Assembly (NCBI GenBank): GCA_965215155.1
Contig: CBDCCY010000001.1
Location: 455,416 to 519,415 of the forward strand
Reading direction: 5' to 3'
Source: Vicinamibacterales bacterium
GTDB taxonomy: Bacteria; Acidobacteriota; Vicinamibacteria; Vicinamibacterales; UBA8438
Length of the DNA: 64,000 nt
Below, piece after piece: positions 8,753-43,007 of the stretch. Each line of letters begins with the position of its first letter. Positions within the stretch are counted from its first letter, which is position 1. Under the pieces are notes generated by a model. It was not told where the DNA came from, ran no database searches, and saw only the letters and a program-made list of their open reading frames with translations. The position numbers were made by a program, and so were the translations under genes.

Positions 8753-8914
8753 GAGTCTGCGCCGTAGAACGGCGACGACTCCGGGAGGGTTGGTTGGGCA
8801 CCGGGCGGAGCCGTCAGGCGACGCACGGTGGGCTAGCGCGCCCTCGCGGGCGCGTTGGGAGTCTGCGCTGGCACGAACCGCTCCATGGCACGTTTCTGCG
8901 GCGCAGACTCCTAA
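8749..8914. repeat. Composite CTAG-bounded palindromic MITE/REP-like element: unit B 8749-8836 plus unit A 8833-8914
   Basis: Near-identical in reverse complement to 26025-26191. Unit A is near-identical to 42023-42102. Inverted repeats GGAGTCTGCGC / GCGCAGACTCC and hairpin GCGCGCCC-TCGC-GGGCGCG. CTAG at 8749 and 8833, CTAA at the far end. Confidence 0.85.
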
Positions 8915-21719: not shown

Positions 21720-21894
21720 CCACCCTCCGAGTCCGCGCCGTCACACGGCGGACTCCCGGCCCGCCGATCGTCGCCTGACGGCTCCGCGCGCTGCCCCGCA
21801 GGCCCACTGTCCCCAGGAGTCTGCGCCGCAGAACGTGCCATGGAGCGGTTCGTGCCGGCGCAGCCTCCCAACGCGCCCGTGAGGGCGCCGCTAG
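21720..21894. repeat. CTAG-element family copy (rearranged unit-B-like part plus unit A in reverse, 21813-21894)
   Basis: AGGAGTCTGCGCCGCAGAACGTGCCATGGAGCGGTTCGTGCC...CCCAACGCGCCCGTGAGGGCGCCGCTAG. The terminal CTAG (21891-21894) contains the glgP stop codon. Confidence 0.75.
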
Positions 21895-26024: not shown

Positions 26025-26191
26025 CTGGGAGTCTGCGCTGCAGAACGTGCGATTGCGGCTACCTCGTGCCCGCGCAGACTCCCAACGCGCCCGCAAGGGC
26101 GCGCTAGCCCACCATTCGTCGCCTGACGGCTCCGCCTGGTGCCCAACCAACCCTCCAGGAGTCCGCGCCGTTCTACGGCGCAGACTCCTAG
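26025..26191. repeat. Composite CTAG-bounded element (unit A reverse 26025-26107, unit B reverse 26104-26191)
   Basis: Reverse complement of 8749-8914 with few mismatches. CTAG at 26104 and 26188. Short hairpin GGAGTCCGCGCCG-TTCTA-CGGCGCAGACTCC. Confidence 0.85.
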
Positions 26192-36348: not shown

Positions 36349-38679
36349 TCAGAAGCGGAAGAGGCGATTGAACTTGACGACGAAGGCCCGGTTCCGGAGG
36401 CCCGGGAAGCGGCGCGCCGTCGTGTCGCGGTCCTCGTTGTAGACGACGAACAGCTCGCTTCCCGGCTGGTATTCCCAGCGGAAGCGGACGTTGGCCGACA
36501 CCCCGTCGAGGCTCGAGTTGTACTGCAGGAGGGCGCTCGTGAACATCAGCGGCGTCATCGTGTAGGTCACGCGGGTGCCGACGAGATTGGTGGTGAACGC
36601 TCCTTCCGCGAGGTCGATCCAGTTGATCGACCACATCGGCTCCACGGAGAGCTGATTGGTGACGCTGGCCCGGCCCCGGGTGATCGTCAGCCCTGTCTTG
36701 TGCCCGCTGTAGAACGTCCCGTGCTCGGCGAGGACGTTCGCCGACCAGGGCCGTTGCTGCCCGAAGTCGTAGCTGGCGTTGACCGTGGCGAAGTCGTAGC
36801 CGCCGACCGGCAGCGTCACCTCCCGCGAGATTGGGAACGCCCGGGGCAGGAACTCGTACGACCGCAGGCCGCCGACCGTGAACACGTCGCTGTTGTCGAG
36901 CTCGATGGCGAACGACGCGAGCGTCTCGCGCGTCTCGACCTGCCCGGCCAGGTTCTCGACGTAGGCGAACGAGCCGGTCCCGACGAAGCGGCGCACCCAG
37001 TCGATCGCCCGGGGCCGCGGGCTGAACCGGAACTCCGCGAAGCTGCGGCGCATGTCGCGGCGCCGAACGAAACCGACCTCGGGGTTGAAGGCGTCGCCCA
37101 CGAGCAGGTGCTCGAGCTGCACGCCGTAGCGGTCGCCCGCGTAGTCGAGGTGCCCCCGGTAGCTCGTCTCGTTGCCGGTCCGCCCCTCGCTGCGTGTCTG
37201 CGCCCAGTGCGTGTTGATGGTCAGGTCGTCGAAGAAGCCGAAGGCGCCGTCGACGCCGTAGGCCGTGTTCTGGCCGCGGCCGTCGATGCTGACCGAGCGC
37301 CCCGTGAACATGGCGCCGACGCTGCTGCGCCGCAGGAGGTCGCGCCGCGCGCGCAGCACGGTGAAGCTGGTGGCGCGGGCGCCCGCGTCCCCGCCCGGTC
37401 CGTCCAGGGCCTGCGGAGCGTCGCCGGCCCGGATGTTCAGCGCGCCGAACGTGAACGCGCCGGCGCGCCCGGTCACCCGGCCGCCGGCCCGCAGCGGCAC
37501 CGACCGGAAGTCCTGGGTCAGGCCGATGCGGCGGCTGTAGAACAGGACCGGCGTGTCGCTGATGCCGGCGAAGCGCCCGGCGGTGGCGACGCCGCCGAAG
37601 CCGAAGATGCCCTGGTTCTCGAGGAAGAACTCGCGCTTCTCGGGGAAGAACAGGTTGAAGCGCGTCAGGTTGATCTGCTGCTCGTCCACCTCCACCTGCG
37701 CGAAGTCGGGGTTGACGGTGAAGTCGGCGATCACGCCCTGCGTCACGCCGAGCTTGACGTCGAGCCCGCCCGCGGCCCCGAGCTCGTTCGCGAACGGCTC
37801 CGCGGTCACGGTGCTGGTCGTCAGGTCGCCGATGACGTAGGGCTTGGCCTCGAAGAGCCGCGATGCGGGCGGCGCGTCGATCCCGACCAGCGTCGCGGCG
37901 AGCGACGCCCGGAAGTGGCCGCGCAGGCCCTGGGCCGCCGTCAGCGGCGTCAGGTAGGACGACTCGTTCCGCCAGCGGTTGACCCGCCGGGCCTGCACGC
38001 CCCACACCTGCGGGCCGGCGCCGCGGTACCGCAGCGACTTGAAGGGCAGGGCCGCCTCCACCGTCCAGCCGCCCTCGAAGCGGCCGACCGCGACGTCCCA
38101 CACGGGGTTCCAGTCGATGCTGATCTGCTGCTCGTTCGTCACCTGCGCGTCGATCCGTCCGCCGACCGCCGACACCTCGAACAGGACGGCGTTGCGCCGG
38201 TCGTAGAAGGTGTCGAACGACCAGGCGAAGTTGTCGTCGCGGACGATGCGCGTGTTGTCGCGCCGCATCTCGCTGGCCATGACGAGGTCGGGCCGGCTTT
38301 CCCAGCACCGGGCGACCACGTAGACGTTGTCGCGGTCGAAGAGAATCCAGAGCTCGGTCTTCTCCGAGGCGGGCGCGCCCTCCACCGGGTCGTTCTGGAC
38401 GAAGTCGGACATCGCCGGCACCCGCGCGAACACCGGCTCGTCGAGCCGTCCGTCGATGCGCAGCGGCTCGTCGACGCGCACGGCGCGGGCGGTGACGCCG
38501 CCATCGGCGCCGCGGTTGATTACCGCGGGTGGGACGGGCGGCGGCGGGCCGAGGATGCGCGCCGGCGGATCCTGCGCCGCGCCCCGGCCTCCCGCGGCAC
38601 CGGGCGCCGCCACTACGGCCAGCAGGGCCAGCGCCACCAGCGCGCGGGAGGCGCTCGGTGCGGCGCGCCGCGCCGTCAC
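36349..38679 (-). CDS. DUF5916 / CBM9-like outer-membrane protein
   Basis: N-terminal carbohydrate-binding-family-9-like region (RIDGRLDEPVFA...LWILFDRDNVYVVARC...WTVEAALPFKSLRY). C-terminal beta-barrel ends in F. Start placed at GTG 38679 (normal-length signal peptide). The alternative GTG at 38751 overlaps the upstream stop. Confidence 0.7.
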   Translation of the reverse strand: MTARRAAPSASRALVALALLAVVAAPGAAGGRGAAQDPPARILGPPPPVPPAVINRGADGGVTARAVRVDEPLRIDGRLDEPVFARVPAMSDFVQNDPVEGAPASEKTELWILFDRDNVYVVARCWESRPDLVMASEMRRDNTRIVRDDNFAWSFDTFYDRRNAVLFEVSAVGGRIDAQVTNEQQISIDWNPVWDVAVGRFEGGWTVEAALPFKSLRYRGAGPQVWGVQARRVNRWRNESSYLTPLTAAQGLRGHFRASLAATLVGIDAPPASRLFEAKPYVIGDLTTSTVTAEPFANELGAAGGLDVKLGVTQGVIADFTVNPDFAQVEVDEQQINLTRFNLFFPEKREFFLENQGIFGFGGVATAGRFAGISDTPVLFYSRRIGLTQDFRSVPLRAGGRVTGRAGAFTFGALNIRAGDAPQALDGPGGDAGARATSFTVLRARRDLLRRSSVGAMFTGRSVSIDGRGQNTAYGVDGAFGFFDDLTINTHWAQTRSEGRTGNETSYRGHLDYAGDRYGVQLEHLLVGDAFNPEVGFVRRRDMRRSFAEFRFSPRPRAIDWVRRFVGTGSFAYVENLAGQVETRETLASFAIELDNSDVFTVGGLRSYEFLPRAFPISREVTLPVGGYDFATVNASYDFGQQRPWSANVLAEHGTFYSGHKTGLTITRGRASVTNQLSVEPMWSINWIDLAEGAFTTNLVGTRVTYTMTPLMFTSALLQYNSSLDGVSANVRFRWEYQPGSELFVVYNEDRDTTARRFPGLRNRAFVVKFNRLFRF

Positions 38680-38747
38680 TCGGAGGCGGCTGCCACGGTC
38701 CGGGGCGGCGGCCTCCAAGCCCGCACTTCGCGCCGCACGGCGCGCCG

Positions 38748-40154
38748 TCACCGGGAGGGCTCCTGGCGGCGTTGCAGGCTGGCCAGGCTCAGGGCGGCGA
38801 TCTCCCCGAACTCGTCACCGAAGAAGCCTTCGGGCGCATCGCGGATGTTCCCGAAACGGTCGAGCTCGAGTTGCGTCAGGGTGGAGTGGCCGTCGGTCGC
38901 CGTGCAATGAAACAGCGCTACGTCGTCCTCCGCCACCGTCTTGTCGGCCAGCCGGCGCTGGAGACGGCGCAGCAGCCGCTGGCTGTGGCTCTCCAGCAGG
39001 ATCTGCACGCCGCGTTTCTCGCAGGCATCGACCAGCACGTCCGCCAGCCCGGACCGCGCCATCGGATGCAGTCCCAGCTCCGGCTGCTCGAGGATGACCG
39101 TCGAGCCGGCGGGCGCCCGGAAGCACAGGGCGAGGAGGGGGAGCACCTGGGCCAGCCCGGCCCCGGCGTCCGTGGCGAGCACCTCGGGCGAGTCCGCGGA
39201 CTTGGCCACGCGCACCTCGAACACCTGGCTGTCCTCGGGCAGCGACGCGAGCCGGAAGTGGTAGGCGAGCTCCAGGTCCCGCAGCCACTGCGCGACGTAC
39301 TCCTCCAGCGTCAGGCGCCGGCCGGTCCGGCCGCGCCCGACCGTCTCGCCCCGCTCCCGCGACGCCAGCAGCGCGTCCACCGCCGCCTCGCCCGCCCGCC
39401 CCACGTCGGCCGGCTGCTCTCCGGCCCACTGGTAGCGACGCCGCAGCGCGGCCCGCCAGGGGCCGAGGTAGTGGAGGTGCTGCAGCCGCTCCTCGAAGGC
39501 CGACTCGAGCCCGGTCAGGAACCCGGCGTTCTGGTAGTGCAGCCGGGCGTGTCCCGGGAACCCGTAGCACTTGTTGGGCGCCGGCAGCGGCCACTTGCTG
39601 CGCCCCATGCGGCTGACGAACTGGAACTCCGAGCCCTCGACGAGCAGGTCGTACTCGCCGCGGGCGTTCCGGCGCCGCATGCCGAACGAGGTGCGGCCCA
39701 CCCGGTGGCTCATCTCCTGCAGGATTGTCCGCCGCACGGCGGCCCGGCGCCCCCCCGCCTCGCTCCGGAAGCCGGAGGCCGGCGACTGGCGGGCCACCAC
39801 CGTGAACCCGAGATGCCTGTCCTCGGCGAGGGGCCGGCCGCCGTCGTCCGGGTTGGCGAGCCGGAGCGGCGTCGGCACGTGCCAGTCGAGGGCGATCGAC
39901 AGGCGGGAGTCCTCCCGGTGCCGGTGGACGACGCTGCGGAAATCGCCCAGGTCGGCCGCCGTCCCGCCGTCCCCGAAGTCGAACACGATCCCCCGGTTGG
40001 GCGATTCTGCGGTCTGCTTCAGCAGCAACGGTGCCTGGAGCAGGTTCGTCTTCCCGGCGCCGTGCGGTCCGAAGAAGGCGGTCAGCGGCTTGAGGGCGAC
40101 GTCGCCGGTGTCGGCCCAGGTCTTGAACGCCTTGAGTCGCAGACGAGTCAGCAT
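38748..40154 (-). CDS. ABC/SMC-type (AAA_21-like) ATPase with DUF3696-like C-terminal tail
   Basis: Walker A FFGPHGAGKTN, signature-like DAGAGLAQVLP, Walker B TVILEQPELGLHP, LLESHS. Tail: LFHCTATDGHSTLTQLELDRFGNI...GFFGDEF. Confidence 0.75.
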   Translation of the reverse strand: MLTRLRLKAFKTWADTGDVALKPLTAFFGPHGAGKTNLLQAPLLLKQTAESPNRGIVFDFGDGGTAADLGDFRSVVHRHREDSRLSIALDWHVPTPLRLANPDDGGRPLAEDRHLGFTVVARQSPASGFRSEAGGRRAAVRRTILQEMSHRVGRTSFGMRRRNARGEYDLLVEGSEFQFVSRMGRSKWPLPAPNKCYGFPGHARLHYQNAGFLTGLESAFEERLQHLHYLGPWRAALRRRYQWAGEQPADVGRAGEAAVDALLASRERGETVGRGRTGRRLTLEEYVAQWLRDLELAYHFRLASLPEDSQVFEVRVAKSADSPEVLATDAGAGLAQVLPLLALCFRAPAGSTVILEQPELGLHPMARSGLADVLVDACEKRGVQILLESHSQRLLRRLQRRLADKTVAEDDVALFHCTATDGHSTLTQLELDRFGNIRDAPEGFFGDEFGEIAALSLASLQRRQEPSR

Positions 40155-40265
40155 CGGGGATTCGGCTCGCGCGCGGAGCGCCGGCCTGCCTGCACGGTCC
40201 GCCGGGGCGGCGACAGGGGACGCGGCGCTGCGCCGTTCGCATTGTAGGTGACCGCGCGGCCGCGA

Positions 40266-41831
40266 TCACTGCACGTGCTTCCGCCAGGTGCCGATCGCGT
40301 CCTCGAGCGCGGTGCGGAAGACCATGAGGTCGCGGCGTCCGCCGTGGGCCTCCAGCTTGCCGACGACGCGCGCCACCTGCTGCTCGGTGCGGTTGAGCTC
40401 GTCGGCGACGGCGGCGAGCGCGGCCCTCGAGCCGGGGCGCTGCCGCGGAGCGCCGTCGAGCAGGTCCTCGAGGTTGCGCATCAGGGCCCGCAATTCGTCC
40501 GCGGCGAGCCCGAAGGCGCTGGCGTAGGAGGGCGTGTCTCGCGAGAGCATCTGCCACACCCAGACCTCGGGCGGCCCGTCGCCCGGCAGGAACAGGGGGC
40601 GGATGCGGCGCCCGAACTCCTCCGCGACGCCGGCGAGGCGCGGCTCCACGTCGCGGGAGCTCCCGTCGAGCACGAACACGAACTCGCTCAGCTTGCCGCA
40701 CTGCCCGAGCGTGCGAACCTGGGCGGGCAGGTCGCCGGGGCCTGCGTTGCGGCCGATGTCGAAGTCGTCGGGGCGCAGCCCCAGCCGGGCGCCCAGGGCG
40801 TCGAGCACGCCCAGGATCAGCCCCTCGGCGACGTCGTCCTGGCACAGGATGGACAGGCGGTCGATCGACTGCCCGTAGAGCGACCGCTGCACGACGTCGC
40901 GATAGGCGGGCAGGCGGCGGACGTCGCCGGGCCAGCGCTCGCGGTCGAGCACGATGCGGGCGTCCGGCGGCACGCTGTTCAGCACGACGGCGCTGTGCGA
41001 CGCCACGATGACCTGCAGGCGCCGGCGGAGCGCGAGACGCTGCAGCTCCAGCATCACCTGCTGCTGGGTGTGCGGATGGAGGCCGGTCTCCACCTCGTCG
41101 ATGAGGACGAGCGCGTCCTCGAGCTCCGAGAGGTCCTTCGACATGCGGAGGATCGTGCGCTCTCCGGACGACATGTGGAACTCGGAGTAGCTGACGTCGC
41201 CCGGCCCGTCGACGGCCGCGAACAGCAGGTCGCGGGTGCGCATGCGGAAGAGCGACAACCGCCGGTAGCGGAGCGGCAGGATGCGGTGGGCGAAGATGAG
41301 GAGCTCCGGAGAAAGGTCGGTCACCTCCGCCGCTGTCCCGGCAGGGTTGGCCCGCCGTTCGGCCCTCGGGTAGGCATGACCCGAGAAGCGCCGGAGGTAG
41401 AGAGGCCGCTGCGGCTGCCGGCCGCCCCGCCTTCCCATGAAGCTGCGCGTCCAGGACTTGTTGCGGCGCCACAGCATGGACAGGCGCTCGGCGTCGTGCA
41501 GGTAGTAGAACTCGAGCTCCGTGGGGTCGACCGCGTCGGCGAGGGCCGTCGATTCCCCGCCGGCGAAGTGCGGGAAGAGCGTCGCCGGCGCGAATTCCCA
41601 CGGTCCCCGGCCCGGGACCCGGTAGGCGCAGGCGCACGCGAAGAGGACGGTCGACTTGCCGCACCCGTTCGGACCCGCGAGCACGGAAACCGGGTAGTCG
41701 AAGGTGATGCGGAGGTCGCGGATGCCGCGCAGGTTCCGAATCCGAACGTCGTACAGCCCGAATCGGCGCTCCACGCCGCTCGCCCGCAGCGATCGCCAGA
41801 CGTCCCGCAGCTCCCGGTTGACGAGCGACAT
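40266..41831 (-). CDS. ABC/SMC-type ATPase with C-terminal Toprim/DUF4435-like domain (OLD / fused-PARIS-like)
   Basis: ATG at 41831 lies 8 nt after GAGGA (alternative GTG at 41873). Walker A LAGPNGCGKST, MSSGERTIL, Walker B ALVLIDEVETGLHP, IVASHS. C-terminal acidic motifs SILCQDDVAEG, FVFVLDGSSRD and LPGDGPPEVWVW. Confidence 0.65.
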   Translation of the reverse strand: MSLVNRELRDVWRSLRASGVERRFGLYDVRIRNLRGIRDLRITFDYPVSVLAGPNGCGKSTVLFACACAYRVPGRGPWEFAPATLFPHFAGGESTALADAVDPTELEFYYLHDAERLSMLWRRNKSWTRSFMGRRGGRQPQRPLYLRRFSGHAYPRAERRANPAGTAAEVTDLSPELLIFAHRILPLRYRRLSLFRMRTRDLLFAAVDGPGDVSYSEFHMSSGERTILRMSKDLSELEDALVLIDEVETGLHPHTQQQVMLELQRLALRRRLQVIVASHSAVVLNSVPPDARIVLDRERWPGDVRRLPAYRDVVQRSLYGQSIDRLSILCQDDVAEGLILGVLDALGARLGLRPDDFDIGRNAGPGDLPAQVRTLGQCGKLSEFVFVLDGSSRDVEPRLAGVAEEFGRRIRPLFLPGDGPPEVWVWQMLSRDTPSYASAFGLAADELRALMRNLEDLLDGAPRQRPGSRAALAAVADELNRTEQQVARVVGKLEAHGGRRDLMVFRTALEDAIGTWRKHVQ

Positions 41832-41954
41832 GCCGATCGTCCTCGCACGGCGCGACCGTGCAAACCGTATCACGGCGCAACGCGCCCCATGCGTGCTGTA
41901 GCACGTCTCGTACCACTTGCCGGTGAGGGTCGGGAGCCGGGGAGGCGGGCGAGG

Positions 41955-41992
41955 AGAAAGCGCCCCGGGGCGGGCCGGCTACCCCGGGGCGC
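41955..41992 (-). terminator. Candidate intrinsic terminator downstream of the MBL-hydrolase gene
   Basis: Perfect 11-bp GC stem GCGCCCCGGGG / CCCCGGGGCGC (41960-41970 and 41982-41992), followed on the minus strand by TTTCTCC. Confidence 0.45.
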
Positions 41993-42022
41993 GACAAGCC
42001 GCTGGCGCCCGGCGGACGCGTG

Positions 42023-42102
42023 CTAGCGCGCCCTGACGGGCGCGTTGGGAGTCTGCGCTGGCACGAACCGCTCCATGGCACGTTCTGCGCGCAGACTCCT
42101 AG
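42023..42102. repeat. CTAG-bounded palindromic element, unit A (80 bp), cleanest copy
   Basis: CTAGCGCGCCCTGACGGGCGCGTTGGGAGTCTGCGCTGGCACGAACCGCTCCATGGCACGTTCTGCGCGCAGACTCCTAG, with CTAG at both ends. The right-hand CTAG contains the stop codon of 42099..43007. Confidence 0.85.
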
Positions 42103-43007
42103 CCGTCGCTCAGCTCGTCGTAGGCCACGCCGAGCACGCCGGAGAGGCTGAGCAGCGCGAACGGCGAGATGTAATCGTCGAAGCCGTCGAGCGACTCGGT
42201 GGCCGTGATCTCGTCGCGGGAGCGGCCGGCCTGCATCTCGCGGCGCGTCAGCTCGAGGGCGGCGCTGAAGTAGTCGGCGAGGTGGGTGAGGTCCGCCTGT
42301 GTCCCGGTCACCCCGGCGGCGGGGCTCCCGTGCCCGAAGACGTAGATGGTGTCGGCATCGTGCGCGGCCACGACCTGCTGCAACGTGGTGATCCAGTTCG
42401 CAATCCGGGCTCCCGAGGACCGGTCCACGAAGGGATGCAGCCGGTTGAACATCAGGTCGCCCATGTGGACGACGTTGGCCTGCTCGAACGTCAACACCGC
42501 GTCGCCGCTGGTGTGTCCGGCGCCGTGGTGGCGCGCCACGATCGTCTCGTCCCCGACGGTCGTCTCCCATGTGTCGCTGAAGGTCACGTCCGGGAAGGGG
42601 TCGGCGCTCCCGGTCTGCTGCGTCGTCTGCCGCTGCCAGTCGGCGCTGTTCTCGTGGGCCACGATCGAGCCGACGACCGGCCGGAAGGTCCCGTTGCCGC
42701 CGGTGTGGTCGCCGTGGTGATGCGAGTTGATCAGCAGGTCGATGGCGCGGTCCGAGCGCTCGCCGATGCCGTCGATGCAGGCCTGCGCCGCCGCCGCGTT
42801 CTGGCTGTCGATGACGACGATGCCGTCGCCGTTGATCAGCCATCCGATCGTCCCGCCCTGGCCGTTGAAGATGCCCACGCCGCGCCGCAGGTCCTCGAAC
42901 GAGGTGACCAGCTCGCCCTGCTGAGCCCACCCGGGCGGGGGCCGGAGCGCGGCCGCCAGGGCCGTCATTGCCGAGGTGCCGAGAAACGTCCGCCTGTCGA
43001 TGATCAT
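42099..43007 (-). CDS. MBL-fold metallo-hydrolase with Tat signal
   Basis: MIIDRRTFLGTSAMTALAAALRPPPGWAQ. HHHGDH metal motif. RBS GAGGAG. Confidence 0.85.
   Translation of the reverse strand: MIIDRRTFLGTSAMTALAAALRPPPGWAQQGELVTSFEDLRRGVGIFNGQGGTIGWLINGDGIVVIDSQNAAAAQACIDGIGERSDRAIDLLINSHHHGDHTGGNGTFRPVVGSIVAHENSADWQRQTTQQTGSADPFPDVTFSDTWETTVGDETIVARHHGAGHTSGDAVLTFEQANVVHMGDLMFNRLHPFVDRSSGARIANWITTLQQVVAAHDADTIYVFGHGSPAAGVTGTQADLTHLADYFSAALELTRREMQAGRSRDEITATESLDGFDDYISPFALLSLSGVLGVAYDELSDG

Follow-up and report, generated by a model that had tools for sequence, protein, structure and literature searches.

We analysed a stretch of 64,000 nucleotides (nt) from the genome of a Vicinamibacterales bacterium (Acidobacteriota; contig CBDCCY010000001.1, positions 455,416 to 519,415), hereafter the window, which bears two adjacent genes, here termed A and B, coding for divergent ATPases of the ATP-binding cassette (ABC) class. 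A first-pass annotation had described two co-oriented minus-strand open reading frames (ORFs) lying 111 bp apart and had quoted their sequence motifs, and its ORF coordinates and all of the quoted strings were verified. It had further proposed that the pair might represent a new class of OLD proteins or a new type of defence system; this did not hold, as both families are already represented in PADLOC-DB and in the study that described the HEC systems (bioRxiv 10.1101/2024.01.29.577857). The locus is a variant that combines two catalogued kinds of defence genes in one uncultured lineage and is not a new system type.

Multiple lines of evidence, mainly family profiles and the predicted fold of the full-length protein, support the identification of the gene A product as an OLD-type ABC ATPase–Toprim protein, with HEC-04 as its closest model in profile as well as in fold. 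Its motifs read GPNGCGKST, MSSGERTIL, LVLIDEVETGLHP, IVASHS, SILCQDDVAEG, FVFVLDGSSRD and LPGDGPPEVWVW, and Pfam places it with AAA_21/AAA_15. HEC-04 is its best PADLOC model (E 9.7e-33; 111 bits, with the alignment split into two stretches), while its canonical relatives align to positions 18–461 of the 494 positions of this model at 124–142 bits, a modest score in keeping with a distant subfamily, and also match the PADLOC model for the retron type I-B ATPase–Toprim protein. The family comprises more than 1600 homologues, each of about 520 amino acids (aa). The AlphaFold model of A has a mean predicted local distance difference test score (pLDDT) of 72.8, rising to 76–91 over residues 290–520, and in a fold search it aligns best, along its whole length, with the Thermus OLD protein (6P74), GajA and the retron Eco8 effector. 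A separate model of residues 290–521 (pLDDT 81) recovered the C-terminal region of the Xanthomonas OLD protein (6NJV) as its top Foldseek match (229 columns, E 4e-3, template-modelling (TM) score ~0.4). The sequence of the C-terminal 234 aa, searched alone against PADLOC and Pfam, returned no match; neither this segment nor the whole protein matched DUF4435; and a sequence search against solved structures aligned PtuA, retron ATPases, OLD and AriA over the ATPase motifs only. The fold matches to 6P74, GajA, Eco8 and 6NJV, along with the HEC-04 and retron I-B profile matches of the relatives, agree with the earlier description of A as an OLD-like ABC ATPase with a C-terminal Toprim fold. What had been likened to a Toprim/DUF4435 nuclease tail keeps the Toprim fold; it has lost the DUF4435 assignment and, as detailed below (Q331/S391), an intact catalytic set.

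By its sequence, the gene B product is an HEC-03-family ABC ATPase of full length that ends in a DUF3696 tail. It displays the motifs GPHGAGKTN, DAGAGLAQVLP, VILEQPELGLHP and LLESHS, and combines AAA_21/AAA_15 with DUF3696 (PF12476) in Pfam; its residues 1–463 cover positions 1–452 of the 458 positions of the PADLOC HEC-03B model (E 6.7e-117, 389 bits), and the next-best PADLOC models are PDC-M55A (1.6e-50) and the Menshen protein NsnB (3e-44). These Pfam and PADLOC matches confirm the prior recognition of B as a second, different ABC ATPase ending in DUF3696. The HEC-03 labels of PADLOC-DB (PDLC04147/PDLC04148) are swapped relative to those of the paper: in the database HEC-03B is the ATPase and HEC-03A the PIN protein, while in the paper HEC-03A is the ATPase and HEC-03B the PIN protein (bioRxiv 10.1101/2024.01.29.577857). 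More than 1000 homologues match B in length, with 51–58% identity. Where genes have been called around these, the B homologue is directly followed by a gene for a protein of ~165–175 aa, sometimes inside an Hma system (DUF1156, DUF499 and an SNF2 helicase), and this small protein matches the PADLOC HEC-03A (PIN) model with E-values of 1e-32 to 1e-39. Among 80 species-level loci encoding a B relative, 78 carry the PIN gene 0–260 nt downstream; the two that lack it are sister genomes of the window, and there gene A stands upstream of B instead. In the 64-kb window itself, a tblastn search with two PIN partners likewise found no PIN homologue (nothing below E 0.4). In one further B-family locus (L085, 6374–6853) the DNA does encode the PIN partner (53% identity to other partners, E 6e-54), which the recorded gene calls miss; hence, surveys based on gene calls would undercount complete HEC-03 systems.

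Table 1. Coordinates of the A–B locus and of nearby non-coding features, numbered from the first nucleotide of the window
Feature	Position	Strand	Description
Gene A	40266..41831	(-)	521 aa, ATG start at 41831; OLD-type ABC ATPase + Toprim-fold domain + helical tail; HEC-04-like
A, ABC ATPase head	40932..41831	(-)	residues 1-300; Walker A GPNGCGKST, signature MSSGER, Walker B LVLIDE, H-loop ASHS
A, Toprim-fold domain	40572..40931	(-)	residues 301-420; Gln331 codon 40839-40841, Ser391 codon 40659-40661, Asp389 kept; pLDDT 76-91
A, C-terminal helical region	40269..40571	(-)	residues 421-521; all-helical in both models
A-B spacer	40155..40265	(-)	111 nt
Gene B	38748..40154	(-)	468 aa; HEC-03-family (OLD-ABC type) ATPase, PIN partner gene absent
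B, DUF3696 tail	38790..38933	(-)	residues 408-455; PF12476 35.5 bits vs cut-off 22
G+C-rich hairpin	41960..41992	(-)	perfect 12-bp stem, 3' of upstream Lactamase_B gene; possible terminator setting cassette apart
~80-nt repeat	42022-42101		directly after Lactamase_B stop codon

The A–B pairing is confined to one small clade of Vicinamibacterales metagenome genomes, and it is in this clade that both proteins depart from their families. We surveyed the Toprim residues in the 120 best A homologues, of which 8 belong to the clade and 112 do not. The family consensus at the Toprim motifs is SILCED...VLDGDS, with the E-D preserved in 112/112 and the D-G-D in 110/112 of the homologues from outside the clade. 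In all 8 clade proteins the Toprim Glu is Gln and the second Asp of the DxD motif is S, A, T or I, a combination (Q331 with S/A/T/I391) found in none of the other 112. Thus, the window protein, with Q331, D389 and S391, has two of the three Toprim metal-binding residues replaced and retains Asp389. The spacing from the Glu position to the DxD motif and within the latter (58 and 2 residues) corresponds to that of E319/D375/D377 in HEC-04 (56 and 2). The first-pass annotation, which had quoted both strings, overlooked the Gln at the Toprim Glu position (SILCQDD) and the D-G-S at the DxD position (VLDGSS). Another departure lies at residues ~149–225 of A, where the family-conserved LYLRTLANLTNPSEVRG... 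has given way to variable sequence among clade members (LYLRRFSGHAYPRAERR... in the window); residues 149–225 are modelled with pLDDT <50.

A count of changes at invariant sites, defined for each family as columns with ≥97% conservation among the remaining members, shows that the divergence extends well beyond the Toprim residues. The clade departs from 13–17 of the 157 invariant columns of A, with other homologues departing from a mean of 1.1 (maximum 4), and from 20–24 of the 131 invariant columns of B, for which the others have a mean of 1.0 (maximum 6). In B the changes lie beside Walker A, in the signature-like motif, beside Walker B and the H-loop, and in the DUF3696 tail, wherein a near-invariant N-W-P reads D-A-P (N439D, W440A). 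The catalytic ATPase residues are preserved in both proteins.

Outside the clade the two families are found in other settings. We examined 80 species-level A-family loci from many phyla, mostly in metagenome-assembled genomes, alongside the 80 B-family loci. No B relative is present near A in 76 of the 80 A loci, and A–B adjacency occurs only in the four sister genomes of the window; the suggested check on whether homologues of A and B co-occur as neighbours across genomes thus gave a negative answer, with no synteny outside the window's own clade. The neighbours of A vary among genomes, and three A-family loci with called genes have unrelated housekeeping neighbours. A naive clustering of neighbouring ORFs at the 80 A loci was swamped by spurious ORFs in the G+C-rich DNA; re-inspection revealed genes of Hma systems, with DUF1156 and/or DUF499 within 6–8 kb at 35/80 A loci (~40%) and 14/80 B loci. 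Thus, outside the clade both families behave as Hma-embedded defence genes; no Hma genes were found in the window.

Individual loci provide some further glimpses of these contexts. In one (L032, 4260–13989) a canonical A homologue lies inside an Hma system with the gene order Peptidase_M78 (IrrE-like), DUF1156 methylase, A, AbiV-like HEPN and HEPN_Swt1–DUF499 ATPase; hence, a single Hma system can hold two different embedded genes. In a Binatia locus (L045, 13240–13596) a weak B-like ATPase fragment is seen ~4 kb downstream of an A homologue on the opposite strand, with 35% identity over 121 aa. A search of a plasmid collection recovered only A-family relatives of 24–28% identity and that of a phage collection none; thus, there is no sign of the A subfamily on a known mobile element. 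The mean pairwise identity is unusually uniform across phyla, at 67% for A and 64% for B (best 112–114 homologues), and the hosts of the surveyed loci (A, L005–L080; B, L092–L169) include Gammaproteobacteria, Binatia, Latescibacterota, Spirochaetia, Dehalococcoidia, Longimicrobiales, Rhodothermales, Acidobacteriota and others. Many records carry names (Entotheonella, Palauibacter, COS/RHO bins) that suggest sponge-associated communities. The uniform identity across phyla, combined with these record names, points to a recent exchange of both families between phyla within one habitat.

The A–B site lies among metabolic genes and is neither a defence island nor a mobile element. The flanking genes encode Lactamase_B, Beta-lactamase, DUF5916 and CoA_transf_3 (family III CoA-transferase) proteins; of these, the metallo-beta-lactamase (Lactamase_B) and DUF5916 neighbours had been named before, and the Beta-lactamase and CoA_transf_3 genes are additional. 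The G+C content of the locus (0.72–0.76) equals that of its flanks and the locus is stably inherited in the sister genomes, in line with the native composition noted at the outset. Indeed, the A–B locus and its flanks are collinear, with 88–90% nucleotide identity, in four species-level genomes. A Lactamase_B orthologue (72–78% identity) is found in the ~30 next-closest Vicinamibacterales genomes, where A and B are absent within 8 kb; an empty insertion site could not be defined in these genomes, since the synteny with DUF5916 is not kept there.

Both genes, including the part coding for the Toprim fold, are maintained by purifying selection. The reading frames of A and B are intact, with zero stop codons, in 5/5 clade genomes, and pairwise Nei–Gojobori estimates within the clade (synonymous divergence, dS, 0.2–0.35) gave nonsynonymous-to-synonymous ratios (dN/dS) of 0.13 for the whole of A and 0.12 for the whole of B, against 0.16–0.18 for two flanking enzyme genes; it is these low ratios and the intact frames that indicate maintenance. 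Within A, dN/dS is 0.04–0.10 in the ATPase lobes and 0.10 in the Toprim domain, and reaches 0.28 both in the scrambled segment (residues 149–225) and in the helical tail. Within B, the DUF3696 tail has the highest value of any segment (0.26), with the remainder at 0.09–0.15.

Comparisons with characterized systems help place these departures. HEC-03 consists of an ABC ATPase and a PIN-domain protein, is embedded in Hma systems and is active against phages in Escherichia coli, with both genes required (bioRxiv 10.1101/2024.01.29.577857). B resembles its ATPase in matching the model over the full length, in its ATPase motifs and DUF3696 tail, and in its 51–58% identity to Hma-sited, PIN-bearing relatives; unlike HEC-03, the locus has no PIN gene beside B or in the window, no Hma genes, 20–24 altered near-invariant positions including the NWP, and an ATPase–Toprim gene upstream. 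A complete HEC-03 system is rejected for this locus, as the PIN gene is absent. HEC-04 is a single-protein ABC ATPase–TOPRIM system, in which a Walker A mutant and the triple mutant E319A/D375A/D377A lose defence (bioRxiv 10.1101/2024.01.29.577857). The A family shares with it the fusion of an ATPase to a C-terminal Toprim domain, a near end-to-end match to the model, the Hma embedding and the Glu/DxD spacing, whereas the window protein matches in two pieces, has Gln for the Glu and Ser for the second Asp, and has the conserved insert segment scrambled. More broadly, A shares the ABC head and the C-terminal Toprim/helical fold with the OLD family (P2 Old, the class 1 Thermus OLD 6P74, the class 2 Xanthomonas/Burkholderia OLD, GajA and retron Eco8), but its sequence identity to these is 10–17% and the catalytic Glu and the second Asp of the DxD are not conserved in it. 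A canonical HEC-04 or OLD nuclease is thus rejected for A, the triad being incomplete.

Other ABC-ATPase systems offer more partial parallels. B resembles NsnB of Menshen in being an OLD-ABC ATPase with a C-terminal DUF3696 (PADLOC NsnB, E 3e-44), whereas the HEC-03 model fits it far better and neither a ParB–DUF262 NsnA nor an NsnC gene is adjacent. For Menshen, the published prediction is that the DUF3696 domains of the NsnB dimer clamp a PIN-like domain of the effector that is itself catalytically inactive (PMC12065111). Such a clamp offers a precedent for a nuclease fold that is dead yet works as a docking adaptor and, by analogy, makes a docking role for the tail of B plausible. PARIS (AriA with the DUF4435 Toprim protein AriB) and Septu (PtuA with the HNH protein PtuB) also use an ABC ATPase scaffold to control a nuclease, and the PADLOC AriA and PtuA models match the ATPase motifs of both A and B with E-values of 1e-17 to 1e-19. 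Unlike in those systems, the matches are limited to the ATPase motifs, there is no DUF4435 and no HNH partner, one of the ATPases carries the Toprim domain as a fusion, and the other protein is again an ATPase rather than a nuclease. Furthermore, unlike in Gabija and class 2 OLD systems, no UvrD or GajB helicase adjoins A–B. Membership in PARIS, Septu, Gabija, class 2 OLD and Menshen is rejected as their partner genes are absent.

We tentatively favour, at slightly less than an even chance, the reading that A and B are a lineage-restricted pair of defence ATPases that were co-opted together and whose canonical nuclease outputs were lost or altered. The comparisons show that B, the sensor ATPase of an HEC-03-type system, and A became adjacent among metabolic genes on the chromosome in the forebear of a single small Vicinamibacterales clade. 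In the same lineage, the PIN gene disappeared, A had two of its three Toprim metal-binding residues replaced, and both proteins were altered at many otherwise invariant positions; both genes have evolved under purifying selection since. We infer that the juxtaposition, the PIN loss, the triad loss and the burst of change at invariant sites are connected, because all of them coincide in one lineage and are seen in none of the other 76–78 sampled lineages. The DUF3696 tail of B would, by analogy with Menshen, probably have been freed from PIN docking or retargeted onto A, possibly onto its catalytically altered Toprim-fold domain. A and B might then form a complex for ATP-driven sensing or binding, with an output other than the canonical PIN or Toprim cleavage. 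Anti-phage defence may still be a function of the pair. More speculative, and in our judgement unlikely, is the specific proposal that two unrelated defence sensor ATPases have become a nuclease-free two-ATPase module, in which the DUF3696 tail of B, once a clamp for a PIN-fold effector, now holds A by its inactivated Toprim-fold domain, and which has been exapted beyond abortive nucleic-acid cleavage; candidate exapted functions would include blocking invading DNA without destroying it, or a host function in a symbiont.

Several considerations weigh against reading A and B as a co-opted pair with altered outputs. The pairing represents one evolutionary event in one lineage, and the conserved neighbourhood is little evidence of functional coupling because the A–B adjacency is inherited together with its flanks. 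A physical interaction of A and B is putative. The Glu-to-Gln and Asp-to-Ser replacements do not prove the domain inactive: it still has D332, E336 and D389 and is strongly constrained, so a modified nuclease is possible. In addition, the Toprim fold of the isolated domain rests on a weak Foldseek match (E 4e-3, TM ~0.4), the dN/dS values come from a simple Nei–Gojobori count on 4–5 G+C-rich sequences, and the PIN search spanned the 64-kb window only, so that an unlinked PIN gene could be present elsewhere in the genome.

The most serious alternative, which we regard as less probable than its opposite while granting it a real chance, is that A and B are independent neighbours, i.e., an HEC-04-like gene and an orphaned HEC-03 ATPase gene that became adjacent by chance, were inherited with the region, and are each being kept or are decaying separately. 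The two families are otherwise unlinked, the entire region beyond the pair is collinear in the sister genomes, the A–B spacer ranges from 36 to 115 nt, and the clustering of defence genes is common, with both families often being Hma-embedded, all of which would suit such a chance meeting. Yet the juxtaposition, the PIN loss and the loss of the Toprim triad coincide in one lineage and in 0 of the other 76–78 sampled, and they are accompanied by a burst of invariant-site change in both proteins; moreover, an orphan HEC-03 ATPase should be useless, as both genes are required, yet B has a dN/dS of 0.12. That the two genes are merely non-functional relics, pseudogenising after the loss of their effectors, is highly improbable. 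The PIN gene and the catalytic residues are gone and the once-conserved segment 149–225 of A is scrambled (dN/dS 0.28, low pLDDT), as a relic might be, but the reading frames are intact in all five genomes, every ATPase motif is kept, and a dN/dS of 0.12–0.13 at a dS of 0.2–0.35 lies below that of the neighbouring enzyme genes. The pseudogene reading was rejected on the dN/dS values and the intact frames.

An active new two-gene OLD-like defence system, closest to what the first-pass annotation had envisaged, would have B sensing infection and the Toprim domain of A cutting nucleic acid through a non-canonical active site. The combination of an ATPase–Toprim protein with a second ATPase, the intact ATPase motifs of both proteins, and the constraint on a Toprim domain (dN/dS 0.10) that retains D332, E336 and D389 are compatible with this. 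We nevertheless deem it improbable: two of the three triad residues needed for HEC-04 defence are replaced, and the residue at position 391 differs among clade members (S, A, T, I), which would be expected of a disused site. The pairing is also absent from all other sampled lineages, the locus lies among metabolic genes, outside defence islands and mobile elements, and PADLOC has no model for such a pair.

ABC-ATPase defence systems such as OLD, Gabija, PARIS, Septu, Menshen and HEC-01 to HEC-04 are thought to be modular, with a sensor ATPase joined to exchangeable nucleases. Against this background, the locus offers a view of the aftermath of nuclease loss, with both ATPases and a dead-looking Toprim fold kept under purifying selection while several species diverged. 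If A and B cooperate, the locus would be a natural experiment in how a DUF3696 docking tail exchanges one partner for another and how an inactivated nuclease fold is put to new use; otherwise, it would hold two known defence genes in an unusual state. Were the nuclease-free module to be real, it would be a natural case of immune sensors rewired after effector loss. In either case it is not a widespread new defence type, and its appeal lies in the retained, nuclease-stripped state.

With respect to expression, A and B are probably co-transcribed, as a scan of the spacer between them found no promoter-like or terminator-like site. The spacer is 111–115 nt long in the window and the sister genome L001 and 36–38 nt long in the three others (L002–L004); thus, an indel of ~75 nt separates these genomes within the clade. 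The start of A is the ATG at 41831 rather than the GTG at 41873, because its homologues begin at the same Met. Upstream of A, the hairpin that had been called strong and credited with a T-tract does have a perfect 12-bp stem, but it folds at −32 kcal/mol (z = −1.0), which is ordinary for such a composition, and is followed only by UUUCUCCUC, a weak U tract; terminator and promoter scans over 38400–42400 called nothing, the hairpin included. The nearby repeat, earlier described as a copy of a miniature inverted-repeat transposable element (MITE), is a genuine 80-nt repeat, with further copies at 8832–8913 and 21815–21888 (95% identity) and a partial copy at 26064–26108, in both orientations within the window; it could represent a small intergenic repeat of this genome or a MITE-like element. 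At the other end of the locus, the called start of the 800-aa DUF5916 ORF is a GTG that shares nucleotides with the stop codon of B (GTGA, 38748–38751). A signal-peptide-like sequence starts ~24 codons further on (GTG at ~38679), and conservation in the sister genomes begins later still; hence, the called start of this ORF is probably too far upstream.

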